From Candidatus Levybacteria bacterium RIFCSPHIGHO2_01_FULL_36_15b (GTDB lineage: Bacteria; Patescibacteriota; Microgenomatia; Levybacterales; UBA12049): a DNA stretch of 64,000 bases. The stretch is taken from NCBI GenBank assembly GCA_001782045.1, contig MFNK01000012.1:21753-85752 (forward strand), in the 5' to 3' direction. The notes beneath the pieces are model-generated. The model searched no databases. It was not told the origin of the DNA and saw only the letters and a list, made by a program, of their open reading frames with translations. The position numbers and the translations under genes are program-made. Below, piece by piece: positions 4,009 through 63,231 of the stretch. The stretch's first letter is position 1. Each line of letters opens with the position of its first letter.

Positions 4009-4971
4009 TTATTTAAAGGCTATTATTGTTCTAAATTGTATATCAGACAAATTTTGCTCTCTACTATCTAGCCCTTGAGATTGTGCATCCTCAGCTCCTC
4101 TTATAATAACTTTTGCTTCTCTCCCAAACGATTTGTGGTGTGAGGTTGAAGTCCACTCAGGCCATATATTACGTTGTTCCAAGCGATTTAAATACAAATT
4201 AGTCTCCAATGCATTTGGGAGTCTTAATTCTGCTTGTCCTTCTTCAAGTCCTAATACTCCTTGAAGTATAAAATAAGTTCGGTCAGCTAGAATTTGTTGG
4301 ACTTCATGATAAGTTGAGGCTCTTGAATTTATACCTAAATATGTATTAAGTGGTGGTGGAGTTTGATTCCCGTAATAAGCGCCGTTAGGATTATCAGAAT
4401 TTAATTCTATGGCCACCCATTGTCCCGGCATTCGTGGAAGATCTATACTTTTATTTTTTACATTTTCCCAAAATTTATTGTTTATATTCCTATAATTTGC
4501 CCTAACGCCAATTTGCTGCTCTGTTAAATCTTCGTAAGGTTTCCAATTTGGATAATTACTATTTAAATATTGGGGAATCGTTTGACCTTGAGCAAAAAGA
4601 TCTATTACGCTTAAGTTTCCTTCTAGATCCGGCATATAAATTAGCTGCATGTTTAAATTATCTAACTTATCTATTAAACTTTTTGTAATTATTTGGTTTC
4701 CTTTTTCATCAACCGGTAAGGGTTTTATATAAAGACCTGTCCCCAAAATCTGTTTCCAAACCTTTTCTTCACGTTTAATTAAAGTTTTCCATAAATCGTC
4801 CTCTTTTTTTTCTGGAACTTGCCTTGTACGCTTTTTCTCTGTTTTTGGAACTTTTAGCAGCACTTTTGCAGCTTCTTCTTGCGGAGAAGTTCTAACATTG
4901 TACGGATCTAGATCCGCTACCTCGTCTGCTCTTGTAATACCTTCTTCTGATCTTAATTCTTCCATAGGCAC
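4009..4971 (-). CDS. Hypothetical protein, RADEVADLDPY-motif family, large paralog B
   Basis: N-terminal GITRADEVADLDPYNVR. Shares internal blocks with 4985..6037 (YPNWK, MPGQWVAIE, LIYMPDLEGNL). Confidence 0.55.
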   Translation of the reverse strand: MPMEELRSEEGITRADEVADLDPYNVRTSPQEEAAKVLLKVPKTEKKRTRQVPEKKEDDLWKTLIKREEKVWKQILGTGLYIKPLPVDEKGNQIITKSLIDKLDNLNMQLIYMPDLEGNLSVIDLFAQGQTIPQYLNSNYPNWKPYEDLTEQQIGVRANYRNINNKFWENVKNKSIDLPRMPGQWVAIELNSDNPNGAYYGNQTPPPLNTYLGINSRASTYHEVQQILADRTYFILQGVLGLEEGQAELRLPNALETNLYLNRLEQRNIWPEWTSTSHHKSFGREAKVIIRGAEDAQSQGLDSREQNLSDIQFRTIIAFK

Positions 4972-4984
4972 AATTATACCAAAT

Positions 4985-6037
4985 TTAGCCTGATTGAGGC
5001 TTTCTAATGTCTGAAAACCTTCTATCCCGTTTTCTGTTTATTCTCATTTCTTTTATTTTTTCGTTTCCTAATATAATTGGGACTGCAAGCGCTGCAGGAC
5101 CAGTCATAAGAGGAGAAAGCGGGGGAAGCGGTTTGGGTGGTTTTTCCTCTTTATCGAAGACAATCATTAATCGAAAACCCAAATCGTTTGTATCTTCGCT
5201 TACGTTTACAACTAATGCTTCATTTTCATCTGCTACCAAAACAAAGGGTGGTTTTTTATCTCCTATTCTTTGCTTATCCTTCCCAAAGTACGAACTGTCG
5301 GTCCATTCTAACTTGATGCCCTGATCCCAATTTTCTCTTTGGTTTAAAACATTCCATTCGATAAAATCGGGGAGTCTAATATGGGCATCCTTGGCAATTC
5401 CAAGTTCGGCCAACTTTCCTTTTCCCTTAGATTCTAATTCTTGATATATAAAATCCCATGAAACATCTCTCCTGGGTTTATATGGCGCAAAAAAATCTGC
5501 AAATGGCCTTACATCGTAAGGTTGGTCACCTTGTGGTACTTTTACATTTTCAACTGCTACCCACATACCGGGCAAAAATGGAAAATCGATATTTCTTGCT
5601 TTTACTTGCTCCCAATACCATTCTTCAGGTATATTTTTCCAATTGGGATAAACCTCCAAACGGTCATTCATAAAACCCTCAGCGCCTAATCGCTTTAGCC
5701 AGTTTAATCCAGCGAGATTTAAATTCGGAATATATCTTAAATCGAATCCTGCCTTTTCCAATGTTTTAAATGTTTCTTCATCTATCTGATGCGGCAAATC
5801 TTTAATGTCAAAAGCAGCTCCGCCTAAGACTTTTTTCCATTCGTTTTTTTCTCTTTTTATAATTTCTTGAGGGTTAAATTCGGGCTCTGGTTGCGGCTCT
5901 GGTTGCGGCTCTGGTCCAAGTAATTCTTTAGCTGCTTTTTCGTTTCCTTTTTCCCTAACTTTATATGGATCAAGTTCTGCGACTACGTCTGCTCTTGTGA
6001 TACCTTGCTCTAGTTCACTTGATTTTAGTTCGCTCAT
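4985..6037 (-). CDS. Hypothetical protein, RADEVADLDPY-motif family, large paralog A
   Basis: N-terminal GITRADVVAELDPYKVR. Has a PEPQ x3 repeat and the YPNWK and LPGMWVAVE blocks. Its stop overlaps the AAA+ gene upstream. Confidence 0.55.
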   Translation of the reverse strand: MSELKSSELEQGITRADVVAELDPYKVREKGNEKAAKELLGPEPQPEPQPEPEFNPQEIIKREKNEWKKVLGGAAFDIKDLPHQIDEETFKTLEKAGFDLRYIPNLNLAGLNWLKRLGAEGFMNDRLEVYPNWKNIPEEWYWEQVKARNIDFPFLPGMWVAVENVKVPQGDQPYDVRPFADFFAPYKPRRDVSWDFIYQELESKGKGKLAELGIAKDAHIRLPDFIEWNVLNQRENWDQGIKLEWTDSSYFGKDKQRIGDKKPPFVLVADENEALVVNVSEDTNDLGFRLMIVFDKEEKPPKPLPPLSPLMTGPAALAVPIILGNEKIKEMRINRKRDRRFSDIRKPQSG

Positions 6038-7881
6038 GAACTTCCACCGTTCCAGGAATTAAGAGTAGTTTGATTAAGATCTGAAACATTAAACTCTTCA
6101 GCTTTTCGCCCCTTTAAAAACCCTTTGAGGGCAAAAATTTCAACCAAGTAATATCTATCTTCTTCTGGATATGCCCTATTGTTTATAAACTCCATTGCTT
6201 TATCTCCAACATATTCTCTAAAACCCACGCCTTTTGCTTTTGCCGCCTGCCATCCAGCAAGCATTTCAAGCATTCTCCCAGGATCAAGTATTGCTTTTTT
6301 TAAGGAAGCCGTCTCGCCTCTAGTTGCTCCTGCACGAGCTTTAAGAATTTGCTCAGAAGTCCCTGCTCCGCTTACCACAACTTTTTTCCCTTGATATGCT
6401 CTTTGTATCCAATCTGCAGCATCGCACAAATTCTTAAGAACCGTTCCTGATTCTTCTCTTGTTAAAGGAATATTACCTCTCCTATCCATAAGTTGCGCCA
6501 GAGAAAGGTCATATACTTCGTGGGGAGGAATGTAGTCAACATCGATAGGGGCATCAAAAACACGCACTATCGCAGGATCCAAGTCTGTAGCAGTTGTATA
6601 TTTACTGCTTTTAATGTTTGCGGTTGCCGAAACTGCATAATCCGGTCCTGCATTTATTTCTCCGCCCGAATCAGTTTGTATTTTAATTCCCTTTTCTCCC
6701 GGCCTAACATTAAGAAGCGTTTTAATTCCCATTACAGCCTGGTTTGGAGCTCTGTCTATTTCGTCAAAAAGGAAAGGAAGGCCCTTTCCATCTCTACCAT
6801 TCATTGCCCTAATCATAGGAGCTGGCCTAAATTCGTCTCCTACCTGTACTTTAAATCCGGTTTTACCTAAAAGCTCGTAGATACTTAAGTCCTGATGTCC
6901 CGTAACATATTCTGGAGTAACGCCAAATAACGCACGAGAAGCATGTTTTAATAGCTCGGTTTTGCCGGTTCCTGTCTCTCCCGTTGCCAAAACTCTTCTT
7001 CCTTCTGCCCAAGCTTGCTGAATTTGTCTTAAATATCTTTTTCTTGAAGGTGTTTCTGCAAAATGATCACGATGCAGCTGTCTTTTATATTCCATTAACT
7101 CCATCGTTCTGGCTTTTCTGAAAACTTCTGCGTCTGAAAGTAAAACTTTTTTTCTTTCATCCACGTCTTTAACTAATTCTTCATTTTCTTGGATAAATTT
7201 ATTTTCCGCAGATGTTAAACCTCTTCCTGAAATTTGAGCTTCCCTTGCAAGTTTAGTTCGAATAAGATCTATTTGATCTACAAATTTGTCTAGTTTTCTT
7301 ACTTCCCTTGCATCTTTCCTTACCCTTGTTTCGTGTCCAAGTTCCAATAGTACCGCGTCATAAAGCCCGGGAGTTTTAAAAAGCTCTCCAATTCTGTTAT
7401 CAATTTCGACAAGTCTTTTTTGTCTTTCTGCATTCACTTGGGCAAAAGAGGTATTTTCTCCGTCTGAAACAAGAAGGGAATCAATTCTTCCCTGTTTTAT
7501 CAATTCTTTTTTACTATCTAGTGAAGCCTCCTGTTGTCCTTCTTTACTCCCTTCCGCCAACTCTTTTTTTACCTTTGCAGCTAAATCTTCTCTTCTTACT
7601 TTTCTCTCATTTAGTGAAGAACTATTAGGCGTAAGCGGAGTGCCCATTTCCCGCACCAACTTCCTTACAACGTCTGCTTTTAGCTCCTCTTTTTCTGCAA
7701 ACAAATCGTAAGCTTCCTGTTTTAGATCTGTTATGTCTGTGGGCGCAACTTTTTCTTTTACCTTGGAAATAATATTTTTTTCCGGAGCAGATTCTCCAAC
7801 GCCTTTAATTCTAAGCCACCTTTTAGCAGCTTCGGCTGAGTGATCTCCCTGGCTTACTTGTTCTTCTTGTTGATCTGGCAT
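6034..7881 (-). CDS. MoxR/AAA_5-type AAA+ ATPase (CbbQ/NorQ/GvpN-like)
   Basis: Walker A LATGETGTGKTELLK and Walker B LPFLFDEIDRAP. Its ATGA start-stop overlaps the vWA gene, as in MoxR-vWA pairs. Confidence 0.7.
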   Translation of the reverse strand: MPDQQEEQVSQGDHSAEAAKRWLRIKGVGESAPEKNIISKVKEKVAPTDITDLKQEAYDLFAEKEELKADVVRKLVREMGTPLTPNSSSLNERKVRREDLAAKVKKELAEGSKEGQQEASLDSKKELIKQGRIDSLLVSDGENTSFAQVNAERQKRLVEIDNRIGELFKTPGLYDAVLLELGHETRVRKDAREVRKLDKFVDQIDLIRTKLAREAQISGRGLTSAENKFIQENEELVKDVDERKKVLLSDAEVFRKARTMELMEYKRQLHRDHFAETPSRKRYLRQIQQAWAEGRRVLATGETGTGKTELLKHASRALFGVTPEYVTGHQDLSIYELLGKTGFKVQVGDEFRPAPMIRAMNGRDGKGLPFLFDEIDRAPNQAVMGIKTLLNVRPGEKGIKIQTDSGGEINAGPDYAVSATANIKSSKYTTATDLDPAIVRVFDAPIDVDYIPPHEVYDLSLAQLMDRRGNIPLTREESGTVLKNLCDAADWIQRAYQGKKVVVSGAGTSEQILKARAGATRGETASLKKAILDPGRMLEMLAGWQAAKAKGVGFREYVGDKAMEFINNRAYPEEDRYYLVEIFALKGFLKGRKAEEFNVSDLNQTTLNSWNGGSS

Positions 7882-9932
7882 TATTCCTCCTTTACTCTTA
7901 GCATATCATATAGATTTCCAACAGATAAATCGGACAAAAACTCCTCTAATAAATTCTCTACCGTCTGTGGCAGGTCTGATACTTTATAAGCTACTTTTCC
8001 GTCCGGGGCATAGGTTCGAACTACTGCGGCTCCTTCTTGAGAAACTCCGACTCCCACAACTTTTACTCCTTTTCCCCTCAAGCTTTGTAGTCTTTCTGCA
8101 ACTATGCTTGCATCGTTGCTTTCCCCGTCCGACATTATTATTACAATTTCTCTTTTTCTTCCCGACTTTAACTCCTCTGCATATTTTTTGTCTTGCATCA
8201 TTCTTTTATCCATTTCTGTTTCTATTTCTTCTAATGCGTCGTAATCGTTTGTACCTCCGCTGATATTAAGCAATCCTCTAAAATACTCTATTCTTTGTAC
8301 CTCTGTTAATTCTTTGGATAAAGGCTTATAAACTTTCGTTTGTGTATTCGTCGGAGCACCAAAACTTCGAAGTTCTGTTCGTATATCCAAATTTTCAATT
8401 AATTCCTGGCTTACGCTGTCTGAAAAATCTGAAAATTCTTTTAAGGCCTCCATCATAAGTATTGCTGTCCTTCTCTGAAATATGTGCTTATCGTAATCTC
8501 GCATACTTCCGCTTTGATCGGCAACTAAATGAATGGAAAAACTGGCTGGAATATTATCCGGCATCGTGTATCCTTCGAAATCTTTCATAGTTTTTGGATT
8601 TATTGCACCATGTCTAGTTTCTAAATAAGTTTGCGTAACTAGACCCGGGTCTACCATTACGCCTTCCTCTTTCAACGATCCAAGTCTTCTTTTAGGAATA
8701 GTTCGCTCCTGAATTATTCTTCTAAAAACTTTTCTTAAAGGTTCTATATAAGGCTCGATTTTTTGGTATTCACTGTAATACTCTGCTGCTTCTTCTTTGG
8801 TTATTCCATGTTCCTCTTCATATGCTCTATTTTCTCGTCTGGCTGGATCGGCATTTTTAATCGTTTCCCTTATTATTTGATCTAAATCTTTTTCCTTACC
8901 TTGTATTCCTCTGTTATCTTTTTTTTCATCTTCATCCTCAAAAGAGTCTGCCGGCGGCTGTTTTCCGCCTTGATTCTGATCGGAGCCACCTTTTTGCTTT
9001 TTGCTTTGATTTGATTGTTTTTCTTTGTCTTTTTTATCTTTCCCCTTGTCTTCTTTAGTATCGGGATGAGCTTCTTCCCGTTTTGCATATTCCTCTTCAA
9101 AAGGATCGCTAGATGGCTGACTTTGTCCTTCACCTTGTTGAGGCTCACCTTCTCCTTGACCCTGGTTATTTTTATCTTTATTTTTTTCCTCCTCTTTCTT
9201 TTTCTTTTCGTAATCCTCTTTGTCTTTCTGCCAAAGTTTATCAATTATCGGCTCTATATATTTTTCGGACAGTCTTAAGGCTAAATATGGATCCTGATCT
9301 GGATCTGTAGCAAGCTCTATAACATCTTTCCCCTTAATATTTCTAAGTTTCTTTATTTCCTCTTCTATTTCGGGGGAAATTTTTACTTCCTCTCCCGGTA
9401 CCATGGCGCGTCTTATAATTGCGTCCATAAACTGCAAATGCTTATATTGCTTAGTCATGTCTGTAACGGGAAAAAGTTTTTCTTTGTAAAGAGTTTGTGT
9501 TTGCGTAGCAAGGGATGGAGCAATTTTTAAAATAGAGCGGTTTCCTTTAATATCCTGTCTTATATTTTCCCATAGATGAATTCTCTTTTTTTTCTCGCTT
9601 CTTTGTTTTAATCTTTTATTAGCCTTATCTCCTTCAGGTGTAGACAAAAGCTGTGCAGTTTCTACCAAATGGGCTCTTATTTCGTGAAAAGATGCAAACA
9701 ATGCTTGAGATCTTGTGTGTCCTTTATCTTCAAAAAACTTAGGGTCGTAAGTTGCTTCTCCTGTTTCTGGATCTATCGCCCACTGATTTCCCCTTCTAAA
9801 TTTAAAGACCCCACCGCCCGCAATATCGCCTAAAATTCTTTCCTCTCTTGCAAAAAAAGAGGCTTCTGCCTCTCTCTTTTCTAAAACATCTTGTGGTGGT
9901 GCTTCTGTTTCCATATCACCAGTCATTTTCAT
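7881..9932 (-). CDS. von Willebrand factor A (vWA) domain protein with MIDAS motif and a long K/E/Q/G-rich low-complexity insert
   Basis: MIDAS DxSxS appears as HLVADQSGSMRD. The vWA-like C-terminal half ends ...VIIMSDGESNDA. The low-complexity segment maps to roughly 8900-9250. Confidence 0.7.
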   Translation of the reverse strand: MKMTGDMETEAPPQDVLEKREAEASFFAREERILGDIAGGGVFKFRRGNQWAIDPETGEATYDPKFFEDKGHTRSQALFASFHEIRAHLVETAQLLSTPEGDKANKRLKQRSEKKKRIHLWENIRQDIKGNRSILKIAPSLATQTQTLYKEKLFPVTDMTKQYKHLQFMDAIIRRAMVPGEEVKISPEIEEEIKKLRNIKGKDVIELATDPDQDPYLALRLSEKYIEPIIDKLWQKDKEDYEKKKKEEEKNKDKNNQGQGEGEPQQGEGQSQPSSDPFEEEYAKREEAHPDTKEDKGKDKKDKEKQSNQSKKQKGGSDQNQGGKQPPADSFEDEDEKKDNRGIQGKEKDLDQIIRETIKNADPARRENRAYEEEHGITKEEAAEYYSEYQKIEPYIEPLRKVFRRIIQERTIPKRRLGSLKEEGVMVDPGLVTQTYLETRHGAINPKTMKDFEGYTMPDNIPASFSIHLVADQSGSMRDYDKHIFQRRTAILMMEALKEFSDFSDSVSQELIENLDIRTELRSFGAPTNTQTKVYKPLSKELTEVQRIEYFRGLLNISGGTNDYDALEEIETEMDKRMMQDKKYAEELKSGRKREIVIIMSDGESNDASIVAERLQSLRGKGVKVVGVGVSQEGAAVVRTYAPDGKVAYKVSDLPQTVENLLEEFLSDLSVGNLYDMLRVKEE

Positions 9933-10284
9933 TATTTTTTATAGAATTTATCTTCTTTTCGTTAATGTAGTTGCTTTTAAACTCCTTACTTATATGCTCG
10001 TAATTTTTATCAATATGACTCTTCTTAAAAGATTCCATAATTTGTTTTTGGTCTTCTTCTATTTTATTTTTAAAAAAACTTGCATCAAAAGGTTTTGGGA
10101 TCGGTGCATCCCAAGTACCGGGCGGTAATGTATCTTCAGAACCATCTGCTGGAGCCGCAGCAGGTTCTTCGTCTCCATCCAGTAATTCTTCAGCCTGCTG
10201 CTGCACAGGAGGCTTTCTTACACCATAAGGGTCTAAGTCTGCAACTTCGTCTGCCCTCATTACTTCATCGCGTTCATCAGCCAT
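9916..10284 (-). CDS. Small hypothetical protein, RADEVADLDPY-motif family, member C
   Basis: N-terminal MADERDEVMRADEVADLDPYGVRKP. It overlaps the vWA start by 17 bp, so it is the first gene of the operon. Confidence 0.5.
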   Translation of the reverse strand: MADERDEVMRADEVADLDPYGVRKPPVQQQAEELLDGDEEPAAAPADGSEDTLPPGTWDAPIPKPFDASFFKNKIEEDQKQIMESFKKSHIDKNYEHISKEFKSNYINEKKINSIKNNENDW

Positions 10285-10344
10285 AAATGTATTATACTAT
10301 CAGATAAACTTATCTACAAACTCGTTTGACTTTAATTCACCCCT

Positions 10345-10749
10345 TTGATATATTCCCTGTCTATGGGAAATGAGATACAAAATTATAGATTAAGAGCGGA
10401 TGAGGTTGCTGATTTAGACCCGTATGAAAGAAGAAGCAAGAAAAAGACAGAAATAATAGAAGCTCCGGTAGAAGTAAAAGCTATACCAGAAAGTTCTGAA
10501 TTTAAAGAAAACTATATAATTCCGCCTGATTCCAAGAGCGCAGAGAATTCCCATTCAAAAATAATAAAAGGCTTAAGGTTTTTAGAATATTCAAGCGCAG
10601 CGGCTTTAATTTTAGACTTACAATTGTTTGCTTTGACACGCGGAGAAACACCATTTAGATCCGAACAAGCACTTGGAGGCTTATTATGTTTGGCAATTTT
10701 TATATTAACCAAAGCAGGAGCCGATAAATACGAAGACGATCTCAATTGA
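10345..10749 (+). CDS. Small hypothetical membrane-anchored protein, RADEVADLDPY-motif family, member D
   Basis: YRLRADEVADLDPYERR near the N-terminus; the true start may be the Met at 10363. It has a C-terminal hydrophobic helix. It is divergent from the operon. Confidence 0.5.
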   Translation: MIYSLSMGNEIQNYRLRADEVADLDPYERRSKKKTEIIEAPVEVKAIPESSEFKENYIIPPDSKSAENSHSKIIKGLRFLEYSSAAALILDLQLFALTRGETPFRSEQALGGLLCLAIFILTKAGADKYEDDLN

Positions 10750-11174
10750 CTTTTAATTTAACTTATAGTAATATACTCGGCATGGAAAGTGAATATCGTT
10801 ATAGACAAGATACAGAAGCTTTGTTCGATGATGATGAGGTTTATATTGATGACCTTGAAGCATCATTAAAACTTTATCCTGAAACTGAAAGACAATACAA
10901 ACGTGCCCAAAATATTCGTAGGGCTCTTTTTGGTGTTTCTTTACTTACTTTATTCGGAGGTTTGTATGAAGCCCTTATTGCGCAAGCAAACAAAAATAAC
11001 GGGCTAGATTATCTCGGGCACGAACAAAACAGTTGGCTTGCGGTAATTACTGCAGGAGTCCTAATTGCATCTGGGTTAATCATAGATAATATAGCTGTAA
11101 ATCGCATAAGAACTGAGCAATTTGAATTCAAATTAAATGGCTCAAAGGGAAAGTTTACTAAATTAGTTAAATAA
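10746..11174 (+). CDS. Hypothetical membrane protein (2 TM)
   Basis: Overlaps the stop of member D by 4 bp. Two hydrophobic helices. Confidence 0.4.
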   Translation: MTFNLTYSNILGMESEYRYRQDTEALFDDDEVYIDDLEASLKLYPETERQYKRAQNIRRALFGVSLLTLFGGLYEALIAQANKNNGLDYLGHEQNSWLAVITAGVLIASGLIIDNIAVNRIRTEQFEFKLNGSKGKFTKLVK

Positions 11175-12067: not shown

Positions 12068-13186
12068 TTAATCTTTAATTTTTGATTTAACGAAGTTTTC
12101 TATTTCTTTCTTAAACCTTTCTTTACTAAATTTTTGTGCATGTTTTATAATTTCGTTTTGATCAAATTCCAATGTTTCAAAAATATGTATTGCCTCTATT
12201 AAACCGGCTAGAGAATATTCATAAAAGAATACCCCCGTCTTTCCCTCAACCACAGTTTCCTTGTAGCCTCCACCGTTAAACGCTATTACCGGCGTTCCGG
12301 CTAGCATGCTTTCAACCGGTGTTATTCCAAAATCTTCATCTTTTGCCAGAGCCAAAAATCCCTTTGCGCCTTTGTAAAGCTTTGAAAGTTCTTCGTCTGT
12401 TACTTGACCCAAGAATTGAACATTTTGTTTAGCTTTTGAGGCTAACTTATCGTATTCAAAATAATAACCCGCAGGTGCTCCTGCAATTTTTAGCTTAAAT
12501 CCCATTTTACTTGCCGCTTCAACTGCCAAATCAAGTCCTTTTGCGCCAACAATTCTGGAAACTATAAAATAATAATCCTTACGGGATTTACTATTTACCA
12601 TCGACGATTTACCAACAGGAAGTGACACTGGAGGATAAATTACTGTTGAATCTCTTCTGTAGAATTTTTGAATCCTTGATTGCACCTCTTTGGAATTTGC
12701 AATAAAAAAATTTACTTTTTGAGCTCTTTTAAAGTCATAAAGTCTTAAAAAATGTCCAACAATTGCAGCATATGCCCTAACTATTGCGAATTTTTGAAAA
12801 TTAACAGAGGTGGTATATCCATAAAGCCATCGCGGAGGCGTATGGCAATAACAAATCTCTATAAATTTTGAATTTGAGCGCTTGAATCCTTTTGTAATAA
12901 ACCAACTGGCAGAACTTATCACAACGTCAAAATCTTTAAAGTTAAAGCTTCCCCAAATAAACGGCGTTAAAAAACGTAAAGGTGAAGCTAATTTTCCCGC
13001 AAAAGGAAGTAAATTGAACCAGGAAGAGACTATTTTTTTATTTTTGAAATGGGAATAAGCACTCGAGTTTTTATCAACAAAGGCTGTATAAATTGCAGCA
13101 TCAGGATAAATTTCGCAAAGCGCTTCTAGTACTCTTTCCGCACCTCCAAATTCCTTAATATAATCATGAACTATCGCAGCTTTCAT
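12068..13186 (-). CDS. Glycosyltransferase family 4 (GT1-fold)
   Basis: EDFGITPVESMLAGTPVIAF motif. Confidence 0.7.
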   Translation of the reverse strand: MKAAIVHDYIKEFGGAERVLEALCEIYPDAAIYTAFVDKNSSAYSHFKNKKIVSSWFNLLPFAGKLASPLRFLTPFIWGSFNFKDFDVVISSASWFITKGFKRSNSKFIEICYCHTPPRWLYGYTTSVNFQKFAIVRAYAAIVGHFLRLYDFKRAQKVNFFIANSKEVQSRIQKFYRRDSTVIYPPVSLPVGKSSMVNSKSRKDYYFIVSRIVGAKGLDLAVEAASKMGFKLKIAGAPAGYYFEYDKLASKAKQNVQFLGQVTDEELSKLYKGAKGFLALAKDEDFGITPVESMLAGTPVIAFNGGGYKETVVEGKTGVFFYEYSLAGLIEAIHIFETLEFDQNEIIKHAQKFSKERFKKEIENFVKSKIKD

Positions 13187-23299: not shown

Positions 23300-24160
23300 A
23301 TGAAATCGATTACCCTCCGTTCTGCCCTCGAGGAGTTCAAAAATTTTCTTAAAAATAATCAGAAAAGCAACTCTACAATAGTTGCATATGGCAAGGATAT
23401 TGACCAGCTTTTAACCTTTTTAGAAGGTTTGGAAAGAGGAGAAATAAGCCATGTGTTAAAAGAAGACTTAGATTCTTTTTTGGCAAAACTTTCCAAAGAA
23501 GGATATACTCCTAAGTCGGTTTCGCGAAAGATTAACTCAATTAGAACTTTTTATAGATTCCTTAAAGTTTCCGAATACATAGAAGAAGACCCTTCCCTTT
23601 TGGTGGTTCATCCTAAATACGAACTAGCACCACCCAGAATTTTAACTCCAACAGAATACAGAGCTTTGCGTGATGCTGCAAGGGGAGACGGCAGAATGTT
23701 TGCAATAATTGAGCTTTTACTTCAAACAGGAATTAGAATCGGAGAACTTGCCAATTTAAGGTTATCTGATGTTGGAAAAGATACTTTGCACATTTTGCCT
23801 TTTGAAAAACATGAAGAAAGAACAATTGCATTAAATAAAAGGGCACAGGAAGCGTTGCAAAGATATATGACAGTTCGGCCAAAGGTAGAAGACGATCATT
23901 TGTTTGTTACAAAAAGCGGAAAACCATTCTTGATTCGAAATATAAGAACTGCAGTAGAAAGGTATTTTAGACTTGCAGAAATTCAAGCTGCCAAAGTAAA
24001 TGATTTAAGGCACACTTTTGTAGCACACCACTTAAAACACGGTGTATCGTTACAGGTGTTGAGTAAAACACTAGGACACAAAAGACTTTCCACAACGGAG
24101 CGATATCTTCAATACGTGCCCGAACGCGGCAAAGACACCTCAGTACTTACGGAACTTTAA
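23300..24160 (+). CDS. Tyrosine site-specific recombinase, XerC/XerD-like
   Basis: N-terminal SAM-like core-binding domain. Catalytic R...HxxR...Y appears as ARGDGRM, LRHTFVAHHL and RYLQY. 286 aa. Confidence 0.75.
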   Translation: MKSITLRSALEEFKNFLKNNQKSNSTIVAYGKDIDQLLTFLEGLERGEISHVLKEDLDSFLAKLSKEGYTPKSVSRKINSIRTFYRFLKVSEYIEEDPSLLVVHPKYELAPPRILTPTEYRALRDAARGDGRMFAIIELLLQTGIRIGELANLRLSDVGKDTLHILPFEKHEERTIALNKRAQEALQRYMTVRPKVEDDHLFVTKSGKPFLIRNIRTAVERYFRLAEIQAAKVNDLRHTFVAHHLKHGVSLQVLSKTLGHKRLSTTERYLQYVPERGKDTSVLTEL

Positions 24161-24473: not shown

Positions 24474-24545
24474 TGCTCCCGCTTGGATTCGAACCAAGGA
24501 CATCTACTTTATAAGAGTAGCGCTCTACCACTGAGCTACAGGAGC
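24474..24545 (-). tRNA. tRNA-Ile (anticodon read as UAU)
   Basis: Manual fold of the reverse complement: GCTCCTG-TA-GCTC-AGTGGTA-GAGC-G-CTACT-CTTATAA-AGTAG-ATGTC-CTTGG-TTCGAAT-CCAAG-CGGGAGC-A. Confidence 0.7.
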
Positions 24546-24560
24546 TTGTAACGTATTTTA

Positions 24561-26933
24561 TCAGAGGCGGGCGCGTTGGGCAATAATTGGCTCGAGTTTA
24601 TTAACCGGCACTCCGTATTTTACTCTAGATAATTCCCTAATTAACTCGGCAACTCTTTTGTTTTCCACTTGCTTTTCCTTGGTCATATCTCTTGTTAAAT
24701 CCATAGAAAATGAAGTTACAGGCTCGTTATTTACAATGGTTTTAACATAGGCGTTATAAACATCTACATTAATTAAATCTGCCTCTGTAAAAGTCGGCTG
24801 AAACTCGTGTTGTAGGTAGCTCGCATCCGTTACCCCTACTCTAAACGCTGCCAAAGTACCAACGTTTCCGAAAATTGCATTTTTAACCTCTTCATCCATT
24901 TGTCCTATAAACTGGTTTGCAACAATTAAATTGAGCCTGTATTTTCGGGCTTCTGACAAAATCTGTGCAAAATCAGGTGTTGCAAAGTTTTGAAACTCAT
25001 CTACATATAAATAAAAGTCTCGTCTTGATTCTTCTGGTATATCCTGCCTGCTCATTGCTGCAACCAAAATCTTAGGAACCAAAACTAAACCTAAGAAGCT
25101 AGCGTTTTCTTCTCCTATTTTTCCTTTGGATAAAGAGACGAGAAGAATTTTACCCTCATCCATTGCCTTTCTAAAATCAAATGCGCTCTTGCTTTGCCCA
25201 ATTATGTTTCTCATCATCTTATTTGTGACAAACCGGCCAAATTTGGAAACAATATAATCTAAGGTTTCTGATTTATGGAAATCGGAAGTCTGTGCAATTT
25301 GGTCTGTCCAATAACGTCTAATAATTGGATCCTGGACTTTAGGAAGCAGCTCCTGAACAAAATTTGAATCAGTAAGAGCACGTACAACTTCTATAAAAGT
25401 GCTTCCCGGCTCGCTCATTACGGTTAACATTGCGTTTCTTATAGCATGCTCAAAACGGGGGCCAATAATTCCGGTTTTATTGGGGTCGTAAAGCTTGTAC
25501 ATGAGCCCTACAATTGAGCTTACAATATAGTGTTTTTCCTGCTCGGTTTGGGCCTCTAACATGTTTAGTCCAAGAGGCATTTCCGTGTCTGATGGATCAA
25601 ATAAAATTACATCTTCTGCCCGCTCCGGCGGAATTAAAGGTAAAAGTTTATCTATTGTGTCGTGGGGATCGATAAAGCAAACCCCTTCCCCATTTCTTAT
25701 GTCCTGCAAAATCATGTCTTTAAGAAATTCGGATTTTCCCGTTCCAGTTTTTCCAATTACATACATATGTCTTCGTCTGTCATCTTTTTGAATATATACA
25801 GGTTTTGCCATACCCCTGTATGTACTCATTCCAAGATAAAGTCCTGTACTTGGAATTTGAACGGGTGCGGGCGCTTTTTTGGCATTAAGCCAGAAAATAT
25901 GAGGCGTTTGTATGGTTTTATTTGGAAAATGATAAACTCCGGCAAGCTCTTCGCTTGTTAAAACCGAAAAGTTTCCGGTTGCCGGGAAGTAGCGATAAAT
26001 AAAATCTGTTATAAAATTTCCTTTTAAAAACTGCTTCTGTTTTGTAAATTCATTAAATGACGCAAACTGATCGAATGCATTTTCCAAATTGTTAAGATGG
26101 GCCTCTGCTGCTTCCTTAGTAGAGGATGAAACAACCAATCTTACTACTGTATAAAAGCCGGGTTTTCCTATTTTTTGCTCAACAGCTTCAAGTTCTTTAG
26201 GGTCTGAAGAATACTTTGCAGTTTCCGGGTTTGATTCTCTTTTTTTAGTATCTGCGATGTGTTTTCTACCCATCTTAGACCATTTTGAATCTGCACCAGA
26301 AATTAAAATTTGAATTGCTGCGCCCTCTCCTTCCCCCATTTTGGCAAGGACAGAAGTTATTGAGGATATTGGATCAACTGCAAATTCTTTATAAACTTTT
26401 AAGGATTTGTAATTACTGTCTTTAAGTTTCAAGGTTTTGAATGCAACGCTACCATTTTCAGAAAATATATTATATTCATTGCCTAAAATGTAGCCTTCCT
26501 TTGAGTATCTCGAATTACCTTCTTCTACGACTCGTATTTCGGCATCCGGGTAAGAAGCGTTAATCTGCTTTTCAACCATGTCTTTATATTTATTAGGTGT
26601 GTATATGAAAAACCGAATGTCGCCAGGCATTCCTACTATTTCAAAAGATATATGAGGTCTGTATTTTAAAAACTGCAGGCGACCGCTTGATTTTATCCCT
26701 GCAAAAGCGCTAAAAAGCTGTTCTGCGGCGTCAATTTTTATTTCGTTGTCTCTTGGAAGCGCAATTTGCAAAAGAGTCGAGTCTAAGGAATGCTTTTCGC
26801 GTTCTCTATTTCTGTACCAAACCATCCAAACATATCCAAGCCCAACCACTACAGCAGCCATTAAGATAAGAATTCCTACTGTAACAAATAGCGATATTAG
26901 TAACTGAGTTAGAGCTGTTAAAGAATTTATCAT
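24561..26933 (-). CDS. VirB4/TrbE/CagE-family type IV secretion ATPase with N-terminal TM segment
   Basis: Walker A VIGKTGTGKSEFLKDM and Walker B LYVDEFQNFAT. 790 aa with an N-terminal hydrophobic helix. Confidence 0.8.
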   Translation of the reverse strand: MINSLTALTQLLISLFVTVGILILMAAVVVGLGYVWMVWYRNREREKHSLDSTLLQIALPRDNEIKIDAAEQLFSAFAGIKSSGRLQFLKYRPHISFEIVGMPGDIRFFIYTPNKYKDMVEKQINASYPDAEIRVVEEGNSRYSKEGYILGNEYNIFSENGSVAFKTLKLKDSNYKSLKVYKEFAVDPISSITSVLAKMGEGEGAAIQILISGADSKWSKMGRKHIADTKKRESNPETAKYSSDPKELEAVEQKIGKPGFYTVVRLVVSSSTKEAAEAHLNNLENAFDQFASFNEFTKQKQFLKGNFITDFIYRYFPATGNFSVLTSEELAGVYHFPNKTIQTPHIFWLNAKKAPAPVQIPSTGLYLGMSTYRGMAKPVYIQKDDRRRHMYVIGKTGTGKSEFLKDMILQDIRNGEGVCFIDPHDTIDKLLPLIPPERAEDVILFDPSDTEMPLGLNMLEAQTEQEKHYIVSSIVGLMYKLYDPNKTGIIGPRFEHAIRNAMLTVMSEPGSTFIEVVRALTDSNFVQELLPKVQDPIIRRYWTDQIAQTSDFHKSETLDYIVSKFGRFVTNKMMRNIIGQSKSAFDFRKAMDEGKILLVSLSKGKIGEENASFLGLVLVPKILVAAMSRQDIPEESRRDFYLYVDEFQNFATPDFAQILSEARKYRLNLIVANQFIGQMDEEVKNAIFGNVGTLAAFRVGVTDASYLQHEFQPTFTEADLINVDVYNAYVKTIVNNEPVTSFSMDLTRDMTKEKQVENKRVAELIRELSRVKYGVPVNKLEPIIAQRARL

Positions 26934-27673: not shown

Positions 27674-28834
27674 TTAGTTTAGTTTTGAATAAGGTGCAGA
27701 TTTTCCACACTCAGGGCAACTTATTCTTCCTCCTCCTATTGCTGCTTCAACCTGCCTTTGGCAAAAAGGGCATTTACAACAAAGTGTGGTTTGTTCGGTT
27801 TTTTTCTGACCGAATTGGGCCACGCTATAAGGATTATTTATATTCTCGGCACTTGCCAAATTGAACCCTGCGGAAACACCTGGACAAGGACCCCCTGCTA
27901 CTCTGGGTGTGAACATTCCCATCGTGGCGGCCTTTCTCTCTACTTGCTCGTCTGGAGCAAAGGCAGCCCAATATTCTAGTTTTTTAATAAATTCGTTATC
28001 GTTATTAACGATAGCAGATAGGGTTTCGTCTGTTTGGTTTAAGACAGAGTTAAACTTTAGACGGTGGGTAAAGAAGTCATACGGATTTTTAATCAAAGAG
28101 TTTATGTAGCTCACCGTCAAACGTGCATTAATTTTGTTAATGAGCTCAAGTTTTTCTTCATCTAGAGCTACTGCGTCTTTATTTAAGTATTTTTGGACAT
28201 CATCTGAGGACTCGAAAACATCTACGTTTATGGGCTCTTTTAGAAAATCGGATGCCCTTTCGTAACTTTGGCAGTTAGTAAATGGTTTGAGTTTTTCTTT
28301 ATACTGCTCTAAAGTTAGGGTAGATAAATACCTGTTTAACTCTACGTATCTTTTCCCATTCTCATCCTCTTTCAGCTCATAAACGTCGAAAAAATTGTTT
28401 GTATAGTCGGAGCCTTTTTCTCCCCTTGACGAAACCGAGAGCCTTTTTGCCCCCACTTTAGAATCTTTGACAGTTAGCTCGGCTTGAGTTTTTACTGCCC
28501 CCAAAAGCTCTGCATCTTCGCGATCGAAATCCAACGGGTTACCATATTTTCTTCTGTATTCAACTCCTTTTCTTACCATGTCCTCCATTGATTGATTTAC
28601 CCCGTCAGCCACCATTTTCTCCTCAACGATCTCAAAGCGGGTTGTCGACCTTATAGCACTTACCCTTTCTCCTATGTATGTTTCTAGCTGTCTTCTGGTA
28701 TAAGTTTTTAACCTTTGTTGCTCGGAGAATGTAAGTTGATGAAAGCTTCTGTAGTCTCTTTCGTCAAAAGAAGGATTGTATACAAGCTTTCTTTCCTCCT
28801 CAAAATTCGGTGTGTAAGTTTGTCTTTCTATCAT
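27674..28834 (-). CDS. Hypothetical protein with C-terminal Cys-rich zinc-ribbon
   Basis: 386 aa ending CCKCPFCQ...CPECG. Confidence 0.45.
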   Translation of the reverse strand: MIERQTYTPNFEEERKLVYNPSFDERDYRSFHQLTFSEQQRLKTYTRRQLETYIGERVSAIRSTTRFEIVEEKMVADGVNQSMEDMVRKGVEYRRKYGNPLDFDREDAELLGAVKTQAELTVKDSKVGAKRLSVSSRGEKGSDYTNNFFDVYELKEDENGKRYVELNRYLSTLTLEQYKEKLKPFTNCQSYERASDFLKEPINVDVFESSDDVQKYLNKDAVALDEEKLELINKINARLTVSYINSLIKNPYDFFTHRLKFNSVLNQTDETLSAIVNNDNEFIKKLEYWAAFAPDEQVERKAATMGMFTPRVAGGPCPGVSAGFNLASAENINNPYSVAQFGQKKTEQTTLCCKCPFCQRQVEAAIGGGRISCPECGKSAPYSKLN

Positions 28835-29473: not shown

Positions 29474-29649
29474 ACGAGAGGACTGCGGCTGCCCTGCTCG
29501 GAGCTTAAATTTTGTATCGTTTTCTGGATATACAGTACCGGCAGTTCCGCCGACTTTCACGGCGATTTCCAATACAAAGTTTTAAATTTTATTTAATTAG
29601 GACATTCGGCTGAGCTCAGTCGAAGCCAAAGTTGGACAAGTCATATTTA

Positions 29650-53512: not shown

Positions 53513-55303
53513 ATGAGAAAAATCCTGTCCGCCTTATTGCTTGTCTTCTCTTTATTTTTGCTTTTATCGGTTAAGCCCTCTTTTGCCCAGTATCAGCAAA
53601 ATTATACAGCTCCAAATGTAAACTCCGATGTTGTCCAAAACCAGCATACTTGGGTGCAAAGCATAATGCTTGAATCTATGTCTGCACTTTCCTGCCAATT
53701 AACCGGGGTGGATCCATTAAGTGCAAATAATAAATGCTTGGGATTCGATACCAAAACAGGAAAATTAGGATACGTTGATGGAAACGGCGGGCTTGTTGGT
53801 TTTGCAAGCAGCGCTATTGGACAACTGTATATCATGCCTGTTCATACTGCAGATTATGTAAGACATTTGGCAGGAAACTTCGGTTTTGCAAAAAATAGTT
53901 ATGCTGCTAATGCAGATTTGGGATTCGATAGTTTAACACCATTGCAACCTTTATGGTCAACGTTTAGAAATTTTGTTTACGCCGCGTTTATTGTTATTTT
54001 CCTTATTCTTGGCGTTGCGATAATGTTTAGGGTAAAAATTGACCCTAGAACTGTAATGACTCTGCAAAATCAAATACCAAGAATCATTATTGGTATAATT
54101 TTAGTTACCTTCTCTCTTGCAATAGCAGGACTTCTAATAGATTTAATGTATGTATCTTGTTATCTTGCAGTTAATATATTTATGCAAGCCGAGCCGGGGC
54201 TTTTCAAAGAAACCGCTGGAACAATTGTCGGTTCAACCAATCCGTTCGATGGGTTATATAATACTTTAAGCTCAACGTATGCCTTACCAGATATCACACA
54301 AAATGCAGCGGGAACCATAGGAGGACATCTGGGAGATTTGTTTGATAATGTAATGGGTAGAGGCATCGTGGGCTTGCTCGGTGGGATATTTGGAATAATA
54401 ATTGGTGGAACAGTAGGAAATTTGCAAGTTTTTGGTACAGGGGGCGCCGGAATTGGCGCTCTTATTGGTGGGGCTGCAGGATCTATATTTGGAGCAGCAT
54501 TCGCGCCCCAAGTAATGGGAACGGTAATTTCTATGATAGCTTTTCTTGTAATTGCAGTTGCAGTCATTGCTTCTTTGTTTAGGCTCTGGTTTCAACTTAT
54601 ATTAGCCTACATAGGAATATTAATAGATATCGTCTTTGCTCCATTTTGGATTGTCGCGGGACTTATTCCGGGAAGTAAAATTAACTTTAGTTCGTGGATA
54701 AGAAATTTAGCAGCAAACCTTGCAGCATTTCCGGCTGTACTTATTTTATTTATGCTGGCAAAAATATTTATTTATGAATTCGGCAAGGGTGACTCAGCTA
54801 CATATTTTACGCCCCCTCTAATTGGAAATCCTGCAAATTCAATCCAGTTGGGATCAATTATTGCCTTGGGTCTTATTCTTATTTCACCTTCTGTTGTTAA
54901 AATGATGAAAACAGTTTTCGGCGCACCGCAAGCTGGTTTTGGACCAGTGTTTGAAGGTTTAACTACTGGATTTGGAATTATCGCAACGCCTACCAGAAAA
55001 CTTACGGGGTCGTTATTTGGCAAAAATCCATATACGGGTGCCCCTAGGGCTGGAAGTCGAATTCTGGGTACGTTTATGCGAACTAAAGTTGGAGGCGCAG
55101 CGGGAGCATGGGCACAATTACTTACTGGTGGAGGAAGACAAGGTGCAGGACATTTAACGCCACAGAGACTTAGAAATTGGAGGACTGCAAGAAGAAACAG
55201 GGGTGGAGCCGCAAATCAACAACCACCTGCTCCTCAAAATAATATACCTGATAATACCGCGACCATCCAGGGTCAGGACGACACCGAGGGAACAACTAGC
55301 TAG
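53513..55303 (+). CDS. VirB6/TrbL-like polytopic membrane protein with Gly-rich helices
   Basis: Signal peptide, then at least seven hydrophobic helices rich in G/A/I (GIVGLLGGIFGIIIGGTVG...), and a hydrophilic Q/P-rich tail. Confidence 0.55.
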   Translation: MRKILSALLLVFSLFLLLSVKPSFAQYQQNYTAPNVNSDVVQNQHTWVQSIMLESMSALSCQLTGVDPLSANNKCLGFDTKTGKLGYVDGNGGLVGFASSAIGQLYIMPVHTADYVRHLAGNFGFAKNSYAANADLGFDSLTPLQPLWSTFRNFVYAAFIVIFLILGVAIMFRVKIDPRTVMTLQNQIPRIIIGIILVTFSLAIAGLLIDLMYVSCYLAVNIFMQAEPGLFKETAGTIVGSTNPFDGLYNTLSSTYALPDITQNAAGTIGGHLGDLFDNVMGRGIVGLLGGIFGIIIGGTVGNLQVFGTGGAGIGALIGGAAGSIFGAAFAPQVMGTVISMIAFLVIAVAVIASLFRLWFQLILAYIGILIDIVFAPFWIVAGLIPGSKINFSSWIRNLAANLAAFPAVLILFMLAKIFIYEFGKGDSATYFTPPLIGNPANSIQLGSIIALGLILISPSVVKMMKTVFGAPQAGFGPVFEGLTTGFGIIATPTRKLTGSLFGKNPYTGAPRAGSRILGTFMRTKVGGAAGAWAQLLTGGGRQGAGHLTPQRLRNWRTARRNRGGAANQQPPAPQNNIPDNTATIQGQDDTEGTTS

Positions 55304-60855: not shown

Positions 60856-60921
60856 ATTTTAATTATAACTTATGGCTTACTAAACTTGCATTTTTATTTA
60901 ATATTGAGATACGATAAGCTT

Positions 60922-62286: not shown

Positions 62287-62289
62287 TTA

Positions 62290-62616
62290 ATGATAGAAAT
62301 CGCATTAAATTTAGACGGCGAAACTATTCAAGCTCCACCCGGCGTACCAACCGGTGGGCTTAATAAACTGGTTGAGATAGTACGACTTTCGATTGAACTT
62401 GCATTTATATTTGCAATACTACTCTGTCTTTATGTGCTTATATTTTCCGGTTTCCAATGGGTGTTTTCCGGTGGCGATAAACAAAAGTTGCAAACTGCAA
62501 GACAGCGACTTACTTATGCAGTTGTTGGCTTAAGTCTTGTATTCTTGTCCTTGCTTATAATGAGCGTTCTTTCAAAAGTTGCAGGCGTTAACCTTTTGGA
62601 TATTCCAACGCCTTGA
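62290..62616 (+). CDS. T4SS pilin-like protein (two TM helices flanking an SGGDK...AR loop), paralog 2
   Basis: VFSGGDKQKLQTARQRLTYAVVGLSLVFLSLLIM. Confidence 0.55.
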   Translation: MIEIALNLDGETIQAPPGVPTGGLNKLVEIVRLSIELAFIFAILLCLYVLIFSGFQWVFSGGDKQKLQTARQRLTYAVVGLSLVFLSLLIMSVLSKVAGVNLLDIPTP

Positions 62617-62651
62617 CATAGATTTTCCTGATGTTAATATTGATTTGAACG

Positions 62652-63176: not shown

Positions 63177-63231
63177 GATTATTAAGAAGGGACTTGACAA
63201 ACTGTAAAAAGATGTCTAGCATAAATTATAG

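Follow-up and report, generated by a model that had tools for sequence, protein, structure and literature searches.

Why should four genes clustered around a MoxR-class ATPase and its vWA partner encode nearly the same short peptide at their N-termini? We examined this question in the window, that is, the whole 64-kb stretch of Candidatus Levybacteria (CPR) DNA analysed here, which is also the stretch covered by the searches of this locus for DGRs, repeats and neighbouring genes. The initial annotation had described five minus-strand genes in the order C, vWA, AAA_5, A and B, with gene D divergent from them, and the open reading frames match this description. The "handle" mentioned in the following list is the short module that carries the shared peptide.

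9916-10284, minus strand: gene C, 122 aa; handle at residues 8-35, with an acidic/low-complexity tail behind it
7881-9932, minus strand: vWA partner, 683 aa; Pfam VWA E=1.6e-07, VWA_CoxE 8.7e-06
6034-7881, minus strand: MoxR-class AAA+ ATPase, "split" form, 615 aa; Pfam AAA_5 E=1.1e-12
4985-6037, minus strand: gene A, 350 aa; handle, C-type-lectin-like domain and basic C-terminal tail
5153-5872, minus strand: CLec/FGE-like domain within gene A, from about residue 56 to 295; its last residues are GFRLMIVF
4009-4971, minus strand: gene B, 320 aa; handle and CLec-like domain; paralogue of A
10345-10749, plus strand: gene D, 134 aa; N-terminal handle, hydrophobic C-terminal half
10746-11174, plus strand: gene E, 142 aa; two TM-like segments, no handle

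The C and vWA genes overlap by 17 nt, the vWA and AAA genes by 1 nt, and the ATPase stop and the start of A by 4 nt; 13 nt separate A from B, and 60 nt lie between the divergent genes C and D. The neighbours of the locus are recF, an alpha/beta-hydrolase-like ORF, fpg, a glycosyltransferase gene, a 5'-3' exonuclease gene and ftsH. When the seven proteins were compared with Pfam, NCBIfam and PADLOC, no family was matched besides AAA_5 and VWA, and C in particular had no Pfam match. Gene E is missing from the syntenic locus L001, and its membership in the system is therefore doubtful. D has a TM-like segment at residues 108-127 (Kyte-Doolittle) and a conserved hydrophobic stretch at residues 78-100, and is probably membrane-anchored.

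The six-frame translation of the window contains exactly four copies of the pattern RAD[EV]VA[DE]LDPY, and the back-translated degenerate DNA pattern gave 4 matches, against 0.00 expected from 100 dinucleotide-preserving shuffles. The grouping of four motif genes around the AAA_5/vWA pair is thus real, as first annotated, and chance would produce none. B and C share an identical motif peptide with 9 of its 11 codons differing, and the codon differences between the copies are overwhelmingly synonymous. This supports the earlier view that selection acts on the peptide and not on the DNA; because the motif codons differ synonymously, a shufflon or another DNA-level recombination site at the motif was ruled out. 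The shared N-terminal unit had been delimited as 15-17 residues. It is indeed shared, but these limits are too short: the conserved unit spans about 30 aa, with the consensus h-R-A-x-E-V-A-D-L-D-P-Y-x-V-R-x-x-P-x4-A-x-E-L-L. The four handles, with the motif copies located by the six-frame peptide search, are as follows.

10180-10263, minus strand: handle module of C, VMRADEVADLDPYGVRKPPVQQQAEELL; motif copy at 10225-10257, minus strand
5918-6001, minus strand: handle module of A, ITRADVVAELDPYKVREKGNEKAAKELL; motif copy at 5963-5995, minus strand
4852-4938, minus strand: handle module of B, ITRADEVADLDPYNVRTSPQEEAAKVLLK; motif copy at 4900-4932, minus strand
10387-10440, plus strand: handle core of D, RLRADEVADLDPYERRSK; motif copy at 10393-10425, plus strand

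The second half of the module, A-x-ELL, is not kept in D, and across all classes the Asp of LDP[YF] is the sole invariant acidic residue. A Sec, Tat or lipoprotein signal was ruled out, because no hydrophobic segment was found in A, B or C or in the first 75 residues of D; moreover, the N-termini of the motif proteins are acidic, and the motif is found elsewhere at internal and C-terminal positions. None of the components of the system has a signal peptide.

The origin of the handle is found in the homologues of the ATPase (n=65, mostly about 870 aa). Fused members of this family consist of a helical N-extension followed by AAA_5, a flexible linker, a junction module of about 30 aa (...VA-x-LDP(Y/F)-x-(V/R)-R...A-x-ELL), an acidic linker and a domain of C-type-lectin/FGE fold. 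Those with an A/B-type domain are 50-60% identical to the window ATPase. The latter, whose own helical N-extension measures about 260 aa, aligns with residues 4-587 of the 903-aa homologue P0027, whereas A and B align with residues 603-866 of the same protein (E=2e-27 and 4e-22). The window ATPase ends in the linker which, in the fused homologues, precedes the handle. Indeed, V..LDP[YF] is present at about residues 590-620 in 46 of the 54 homologues of at least 700 aa, with near-variants in six more. On these alignments we regard it as established that the shared motif is the conserved AAA/CLec junction of a longer ancestral-type protein, and A and B are split-off copies of the C-type-lectin-like domain with which the ATPase itself ends in those homologues. 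The notion of an N-terminal tag is consequently not supported, since the motif is an ancestral inter-domain junction that lies elsewhere in mid-protein and at extreme C-termini. The motif proteins had also been presented as clients of the ATPase. Their tie to it holds, through a Rosetta-stone fusion, but A and B are detached ATPase domains and not independent clients; since they share homology with one of the ATPase's own domains, they are to be read as subunits and not as substrates.

A and B are 30% identical (E=6e-25). A protein search with A alone returned itself and one orthologue, and an exhaustive HMMER search reached 232 family representatives. The AF2 model of A (pLDDT 80, above 90 in the core and 62-69 at the motif) points to the C-type-lectin (FGE-type) ligand-binding fold class for its domain; a Foldseek comparison of this model with the PDB gave no significant match. 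In the AF2 model of the fused homologue P0028, the motif block at residues 591-600 has a pLDDT of 83 and the flanking linkers fall below 50. The block is modelled as a short helix-turn, which does not establish docking.

The window is not alone in having a split ATPase. L001, L005/L006 and L122 show the same kind of split, surrounded by 2-5 handle-bearing genes; in L122, a 574-aa ATPase is followed by three tandem handle-CLec paralogues. A more distant split form is present in L117. Wherever a split was seen, the handle is on the attached domain, or payload, and never on the ATPase; by these comparisons, the split is stable and recurrent. Between the window and L001, identity reaches 80-94% for housekeeping proteins, 90% for the vWA protein and 89% for the AAA protein, against 53-55% for A, B and D and 68% for C. 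The first 40 residues or so of A, B, C and D are nearly identical in the two loci (in C, the N-terminal 35 aa are nearly invariant). By these identities, the module is nearly invariant while its payloads diverge fast.

The module does not depend on the lectin domain either: besides C and D, it is carried by an unrelated repeated domain in L012 and by other payloads in L095. Elsewhere it can be N-terminal, internal or at the extreme C-terminus, as in L012, L058 and L107, where ...LDPYGVRK-stop places it 4-5 residues from the end. L012 contains an array of up to 11 handle-bearing genes, and no AAA_5 or vWA gene was found within 9-14 kb of the handle arrays in L012, L095, L031 and L034. Docking to a motor of this kind encoded in cis can therefore not be a strict requirement. 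Such arrays go part of the way to what the initial annotation had expected to speak against its proposal; the other observation that it had named, a match of the motif to a generic secretion or lipidation signal, was not made. Apparent AAA matches in L012 and L013 were discarded, as they were caused by lectin-domain residues in the query and there is no AAA there. Conversely, AAA_5-CLec fusions with vWA partners exist that have no motif (L118-L120), which means that cooperation between AAA and vWA proteins does not in general require it. Wider searches returned little. A profile of eight N-terminal modules gave nothing at E<=10 against an index of 5.8 billion proteins, a size for which the module is too short, and the strict back-translated motif had 0 matches in the GTDB species representatives. 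A genome scan with the ATPase alignment was dominated by the generic Walker-A pattern and yielded only L007 and L008, which are irrelevant.

What kind of motor could the handle serve? The relevant elements of the two core proteins are the following.

7956-8534, minus strand: vWA domain, residues 467-659 (Pfam and orthologue alignment)
8505-8519, minus strand: MIDAS DQSGS of the vWA domain
8244-8258, minus strand: MIDAS GGTND of the vWA domain
8118-8132, minus strand: MIDAS SDGES of the vWA domain
6700-6993, minus strand: AAA_5 core of the ATPase, residues 297-394 (Pfam)
6955-6981, minus strand: Walker A GETGTGKTE of the ATPase, invariant in family alignments
6754-6771, minus strand: Walker B LFDEID of the ATPase, invariant in family alignments

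The vWA protein is made of a conserved N-terminal alpha domain (about residues 1-245), a K/E/Q-rich disordered linker and the C-terminal vWA domain, whose MIDAS residues (DQSGS/GGTND/SDGES) are conserved in 8 orthologues. Its gene lies directly upstream of the ATPase gene in L001, L002, L004, L005, L009, L010, L011 and L122. The top Foldseek matches of the AF2 model of P0028 were NorQ, NorQ-NorD and CbbQ (E 7.5e-10 to 1e-7, TM(target) 0.71-0.78), the modelled protein being a homologue and not the window ATPase itself; by sequence, no significant PDB relative was found for the AAA, vWA or A/B proteins. The pairing of a MoxR-class AAA+ protein with a MIDAS-bearing vWA protein, proposed at the outset, is thus borne out by the Pfam matches, the intact MIDAS and the NorQ/CbbQ-like fold of the homologue. 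The mechanism of MoxR/vWA pairs has been described (PMC13036017). A cognate client (cNOR, Rubisco, CODH or LdcI) was found neither in the window nor in about 12 related loci. In L002, L004 and L010, the module adjoins a VirD4-like ATPase, a conserved neighbour of 261-275 aa (with a weak, sub-threshold Replic_Relax match in L010) and a serine recombinase. An obligatory role as part of a conjugative element was ruled out, since the modules of L009, L011 and the window sit among housekeeping genes.

In relatives, the lectin domain is a DGR target. The last 115 nt or so of the fused gene in L010 and L004 match an inverted repeat beside RVT_1, and in L010 bAvd is also beside the repeat. TR/VR mismatches fall at template adenines in 19/19 cases in L010 and 20/21 in L004; both pairs were found by blastn-short, a general repeat search having missed them. 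Fused genes flanked by RT genes likewise occur in L033, L043, L060 and L115. The GFRLMIVF end of the lectin domain of A lies where relatives have their DGR variable repeat. However, the 64-kb window holds no second copy of the 3' parts of A or B, and so no VR/TR pair; no RT or Avd was detected in the window, L001 or L005 by tblastn with the L010 and L004 RT and the L010 Avd, and the few population variants found display no hypervariation. A DGR located elsewhere in the genome, beyond these 64 kb, may act in trans. According to Paul et al. 2017, as reported in PMC10907252, the AAA ATPase-CLec protein is the commonest DGR target in CPR bacteria, and the CPR "UVR4" DGR targets match Midasin-type AAA (PMC5758913). 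The arrangement, once taken not to be a described system, belongs to the AAA-CLec class of Paul et al. 2017, as covered in PMC10907252 (compare PMC5758913). The window proteins are of the same family as these CPR proteins, among which the L010 and L004 homologues are demonstrable DGR targets; they differ in that ATPase and lectin are separate genes, the lectin gene is duplicated, RT, Avd, TR and hypervariation are missing from the 64 kb, and proteins other than lectins have acquired the junction module.

We consider it probable that the locus is a split MoxR ATPase-lectin module with duplicated payloads, in which the former junction is reused as a portable docking handle to the AAA+/vWA motor. 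The break in the ATPase gene would have fallen in the linker, immediately before the junction module, and the lectin part would then have been duplicated to give A and B; the junction module alone would also have been placed at the head of the soluble C and the membrane-anchored D. The most likely role of the handle is to tether interchangeable binding modules to the motor; the docking itself, the receptor site and its identity, and the biological ligand are what we infer. Acting in trans, the handle would hold the separated payloads to the AAA+/vWA motor or to one another, and therefore one conserved motor would serve several interchangeable, fast-evolving binding or anchoring subunits. Paralogue divergence would replace DGR hypermutation as the source of diversity. 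The motor would probably be NorQ/NorD- and CbbQ/CbbO-like: a finger of the vWA protein would reach into the pore of the hexamer, and ATP would drive the pulling or twisting of that protein. Because no component has a signal peptide, the lectin domains would recognise their ligands in the cytoplasm, or at the inner face of the membrane via D. We further speculate, in terms that fall short of likely, that the LDP(Y/F) module is an undescribed portable CPR docking handle and that the system forms a cytoplasmic "receptor panel" by paralogue swapping on one MoxR-vWA motor. As tentatively, the payloads of such a panel would be lectin-fold domains, at least two other families and a membrane anchor, and the L012 arrays would be subunit libraries.

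A different and rather unlikely explanation is that the motif is a client tag: the metal of the vWA MIDAS would coordinate the LDPY Asp, and the AAA+ protein would remodel, load or unload the tagged proteins. The MIDAS residues are intact and conserved, that Asp is the only invariant acidic residue available in the module, and the module lies in or beside flexible segments and at either terminus, as a tag would. Integrin I-domains bind L/I-D/E-x-P-type motifs. MoxR/vWA systems use the MIDAS to contact acidic residues on the surface of their targets (discussed in PMC13036017). However, the homology of A and B to the ATPase's own domain makes them subunits, and there are both AAA_5-CLec/vWA families without the motif and motif arrays without a nearby vWA gene. 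By analogy with the effector-associated domains (EADs) of MoxR-vWA/NTPase conflict systems, the module could also be a homotypic adaptor, handle binding handle in hetero-oligomers with or without the ATPase, which we find improbable. Its independence of position, the arrays remote from AAA/vWA genes (up to 11 genes in L012) and the single copy on the core component in fused proteins, as for EADs (concept in PMC7159879), are compatible with such a role, but neither the AAA nor the vWA protein bears a handle in the split Levybacteria system, so that homotypic binding alone would not link the payloads to the motor, and the module is short, about 30 aa in two short helices. The likeness to EADs and docking domains, a short conserved module common to a core component and variable proteins, is one of analogy only, and the handle has no sequence relation to those described (no Pfam or NCBIfam match). 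It is most improbable that the motif has no function of its own, as an inherited N-terminal lectin cap, a fission relic or an Asp-Pro processing site: its origin at the AAA/CLec junction is established and Asp-Pro bonds can be labile, but proteins with no lectin domain also bear the module (C, D and the payloads of L012 and L095), its conservation far exceeds that of the attached domains, it is kept through synonymous codon turnover, and cleavage 4-5 residues from the C-terminus (L012, L058, L107) would be senseless.

The locus can also be set beside two other kinds of known systems. Like the remodelling pairs NorQ/NorD, CbbQ/CbbO, RavA/ViaA, CoxD/CoxE and CobS/CobT, it has an AAA_5 ATPase, the modelled homologue being nearest to NorQ and CbbQ, and, in the same operon, a vWA protein whose MIDAS is intact and whose linker is long; in sister AAA-CLec families, the vWA partners match CobT_C. 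Unlike these pairs, it has no metalloenzyme or Rubisco client genes nearby, and its ATPase carries the helical extension of about 260 aa at the N-terminus and ancestrally ended in a lectin-fold domain. The MoxR-vWA ternary conflict systems (Kaur et al. 2020, PMC7159879; Dore et al. 2024, PMC10907252) also cluster a MoxR ATPase, a vWA protein and CLec/FGS; their proposed logic couples a hypervariable (DGR-diversified) FGS sensor to an NTPase, and their main hosts are multicellular cyanobacteria, actinobacteria and proteobacteria and not CPR bacteria. There, the FGS is fused to the vWA protein and a third component, VMAP (vWA-MoxR-associated protein), is present, whereas the lectin of the window family belongs to the ATPase or stands alone. 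Pfam holds VMAP models, and comparison of the seven window proteins with Pfam, NCBIfam and PADLOC revealed neither a VMAP nor a peptidase, TIR or other effector domain.

If the handle were merely a structural relic, the locus would be an ordinary degenerate member of a known family. Across the locus and its split relatives, the ATPase is always accompanied by a MIDAS-vWA partner, and the lectin domain is separable and joined by a strongly conserved element of about 30 aa, which has turned into an independent handle on fast-evolving proteins of several kinds. Through short peptides and small soluble proteins, sensor-motor coupling thus becomes testable, and the system suggests that panels of paralogues may be an alternative to retroelement hypermutation for receptor diversity in tiny genomes.

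The motif RAD[EV]VA[DE]LDPY occurs exactly four times in a six-frame search of the window, a Candidatus Levybacteria (CPR) sequence, and its degenerate DNA form gives 4 matches against 0.00 expected. The genes that carry it (A, B, C and D) are grouped with those of an AAA_5 ATPase and a vWA protein:

9916-10284, minus strand: gene C, overlapping the vWA gene by 17 nt
7881-9932, minus strand: vWA protein (Pfam VWA, E=1.6e-07), overlapping the ATPase gene by 1 nt
6034-7881, minus strand: AAA_5 ATPase (Pfam AAA_5, E=1.1e-12), overlapping A by 4 nt
4985-6037, minus strand: gene A, separated from B by 13 nt
4009-4971, minus strand: gene B, separated from A by 13 nt
10345-10749, divergent from the minus-strand cluster: gene D, followed by gene E

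Searches of Pfam, NCBIfam and PADLOC matched the cluster proteins to AAA_5 and VWA alone. A is a paralogue of B (E=6e-25), the tail of C is disordered, and D ends in a hydrophobic, membrane-type C-terminal half. Identical motif peptides differ in up to 9 of 11 codons and every change is synonymous; selection therefore acts on the peptide and not on a nucleotide repeat, as the initial annotation had held. The true conserved unit spans about 30 residues, with P-x4-A-x-E-L-L as its second half. We refer to this unit as the handle or junction module, and to the rest of each protein as its payload.

Sixty-five homologues of the window ATPase were detectable, most of them 800-940 aa long versus 615 in the window. 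The window ATPase spans just residues ~4-587 of the long homologues (BLASTP), A and B align with their C-terminal ~260 residues (for example residues 603-866 of the fused homologue P0027, E=2e-27), and V..LDP[YF] stands at the seam, near residue 600, in 46 of 54 long homologues, with near-variants in six more. The junction consensus of the fused proteins reads Y-L-x3-R-V-A-x-L-D-P-Y-R-R-F-K-R-P-V-S-A-E-A-E-E-L-L. Since the window ATPase, A/B and the motif map onto consecutive parts of the long homologues, the Levybacteria genes appear, from these alignments, to be the product of fission of a single ancestral architecture, the predicted cut being in the variable linker immediately upstream of the motif. 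The same split is found at the related loci L001 (ATPase 88% identical), L005/L006 (61%) and L122 (49%), and at the more distant L117, and this recurrence rules out an assembly artefact. The motif is on the payload side in every split locus; at L122, a 574-aa ATPase is followed by three tandem handle-bearing paralogues. We consider this identification and its evolutionary reading well supported and very probably correct. At L005 3986-4006 and L006 1924-1944, an in-frame stop directly follows the motif in a handle-like ORF (GVVAGLDPYGRRN*IQQAREMLLEE) that precedes a called gene of 191 aa; pseudogenisation, a sequencing error or recoding may explain the interruption.

We next turned to the payload domain. 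With A, B and an orthologue as query, exhaustive HMMER searching matched 232 cluster representatives. Many of them stand alone at ~270 aa, and some of these carry the motif at the N-terminus; in others the domain is joined to an AAA_5 ATPase from a different subfamily or to a ClpB-D2-like AAA_2. The domain scores are modest, one family member matching Lcl_C in Pfam, which does not cover the family, and Foldseek gave no significant PDB match. Independent confirmation that the domain is of the C-type-lectin-like (CLec) class comes from the diversity-generating retroelement (DGR) context of its relatives. RVT_1 and bAvd come after the fused gene at L010, an RVT_1 gene lies ahead of the vWA gene at L004, and at both loci an inverted copy of the last ~115 nt of the fused gene adjoins the reverse transcriptase (RT). 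These copies differ at 19 (L010) and 21 (L004) positions, of which 19 and 20, respectively, are template adenines, a pattern that is the hallmark of mutagenic retrohoming by a DGR. In four metagenome loci, too, fused genes occur together with RT genes. DGR targeting of these relatives matches the published CPR targets, among which the 'UVR4' targets match Midasin-type AAA (PMC5758913). No RT, Avd or template repeat was found in the 64-kb window, L001 or L005, and the cluster members that other samples hold for A, B and C carry 1-2 residue differences, which form no variable-repeat-type pattern. At L002, a degenerate DGR reverse transcriptase fragment (12704-12926) lies directly downstream of the fused AAA-CLec gene, with no detectable template/variable repeat pair; it may represent an intermediate stage in DGR loss.

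The handle evolves differently from what it carries. Between the window and L001, identity is 80-94% for housekeeping neighbours, 90% for the vWA protein and 89% for the ATPase; it is just 53-55% for A, B and D and 68% for C, and the first ~40 residues of A to D are almost unchanged. The four proteins follow a pattern of constant handle and variable payload. The lectin fold does not include the junction module, which is also present on C, on D and on proteins of other build at L012, L058, L107 and L095. Indeed, L012 (655-9453) holds a tandem array of 11 consecutive translationally coupled genes, every one with an LDPY module, which is N-terminal on five lectin-type or related payloads and internal or extreme C-terminal (...LDPYGVRK*) in six proteins of an unrelated ~150-aa repeated domain (...LAEIL..RG...); no AAA_5 or vWA gene is found in this 12-kb locus. 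The C-terminal form recurs at L058 and L107, and L095 has four handle genes with yet other payloads. A metagenome scan with the degenerate pattern EVAxLDP[YF]x[V]R returned 105 loci. Some 31 of these are genuine, and they fall into three classes: fused, N-terminal and C-terminal. In an AF2 model of a fused protein, the motif block reaches pLDDT 83 while the linkers on either side stay below 50, a profile consistent with a docked element or with one that folds on its own. The motif strings were absent from the papers of the literature library searched.

As for the motor, NorQ, NorQ-NorD complexes and CbbQ are the best matches to the fused homologue P0028 as modelled by AF2 (pLDDT 82). Walker A and Walker B are invariant in the ATPase family, the order vWA then ATPase is kept in all related loci, and the vWA partner combines a strongly conserved domain at its N-terminus with a low-complexity linker and a vWA domain whose MIDAS residues are conserved. 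By analogy with NorQD (PMC13036017), the window motor would insert a vWA 'finger' into the pore of the hexamer and use ATP to twist the vWA linker. Within the N-terminal domain of the vWA partner (window 7881-9932), residues ~60-100 form a nearly invariant block, TGEATYDPKFFE.KGY..SQ.LF..FHE[IL][KR].H, which holds HExxxH and not the zincin HExxH.

The initial annotation saw the motif as a client tag whose acidic residue is bound by the vWA MIDAS. The fusion gives strong support to a functional tie between the motif proteins and the ATPase. As subunits that became detached from the machine, A and B should not be called its clients. Binding of the Asp of LDP[YF] by the MIDAS metal is an unlikely, minority possibility: this Asp is the sole invariant acidic residue of the module and the MIDAS of the partner is intact, but no such motif occurs in the sister AAA_5-CLec families of L118-L120, which have CobT_C-like vWA partners as well as Avd/RT, and the handle arrays of L012, L095, L031 and L034 have no AAA or vWA gene within 9-14 kb, which together weaken it as a general rule. 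A cleavage site is unlikely given the C-terminal instances, and a DNA recombination site and an export signal are excluded, by the synonymous differences and by the lack of a hydrophobic segment, respectively.

Genes of mobile-element and secretion type are also present in the window:

23300-24160: tyrosine recombinase (Phage_integrase, E=1.4e-28)
24474-24545, minus strand: tRNA gene, between the recombinase and the VirD4/TraG-like gene
24561-26933, minus strand: VirD4/TraG-like coupling ATPase of 790 aa (TrwB_AAD_bind and TraG-D_C matches)
60757-63636: four consecutive T4SS_pilin (TrbC/VirB2-like) genes by domain match, one of 509 aa

The segment 23300-26933 could be a mobile element integrated at the tRNA, and the pilin and VirD4-like genes suggest a type-IV-secretion or conjugation-like apparatus in this Levybacteria genome. 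The VirD4/TraG-like ATPase is 30% identical to DUF8128 proteins adjoining the DGR/AAA-vWA modules of L002 and L004. At L002 2199-9998, L004 911-18669 and L010 12739-20781, vWA and AAA-CLec genes (with or without a DGR) have as neighbours a large serine recombinase, a VirD4-like ATPase (DUF8128) and a conserved protein of 261-275 aa, whose L010 copy matches Replic_Relax weakly and below threshold; genes for VirB4-like, TrbC pilin and M23 peptidase proteins are also found at L004. In some genomes the vWA/AAA-CLec system travels as cargo on an integrative conjugative or mobilisable element. Elsewhere in the window, an AdoCbl-II (cobalamin) riboswitch match (29509-29588, minus strand; 42.1 bits, gathering score 36.5), unusual for a reduced CPR genome, lies upstream of ORFs without Pfam match (27674-28834); a 1248-aa ORF (55300-59046, minus strand) matches nothing in Pfam at E<=0.01; and a 353-aa ORF (862-1923) contains, as read from its translation, HPFLDGNGRVAR, a putative Fic/DOC active-site signature HxFx(D/E)GNGR.

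Altogether, the window locus belongs to the known AAA-CLec/vWA system of CPR bacteria, as a split variant that apparently lacks a DGR. Docking through the handle is a plausible mechanism that we put forward tentatively, and one may ask whether the system is a sensor of foreign or host molecules. What is new here is the conserved junction module as a portable handle, together with recurrent fission and paralogue expansion.
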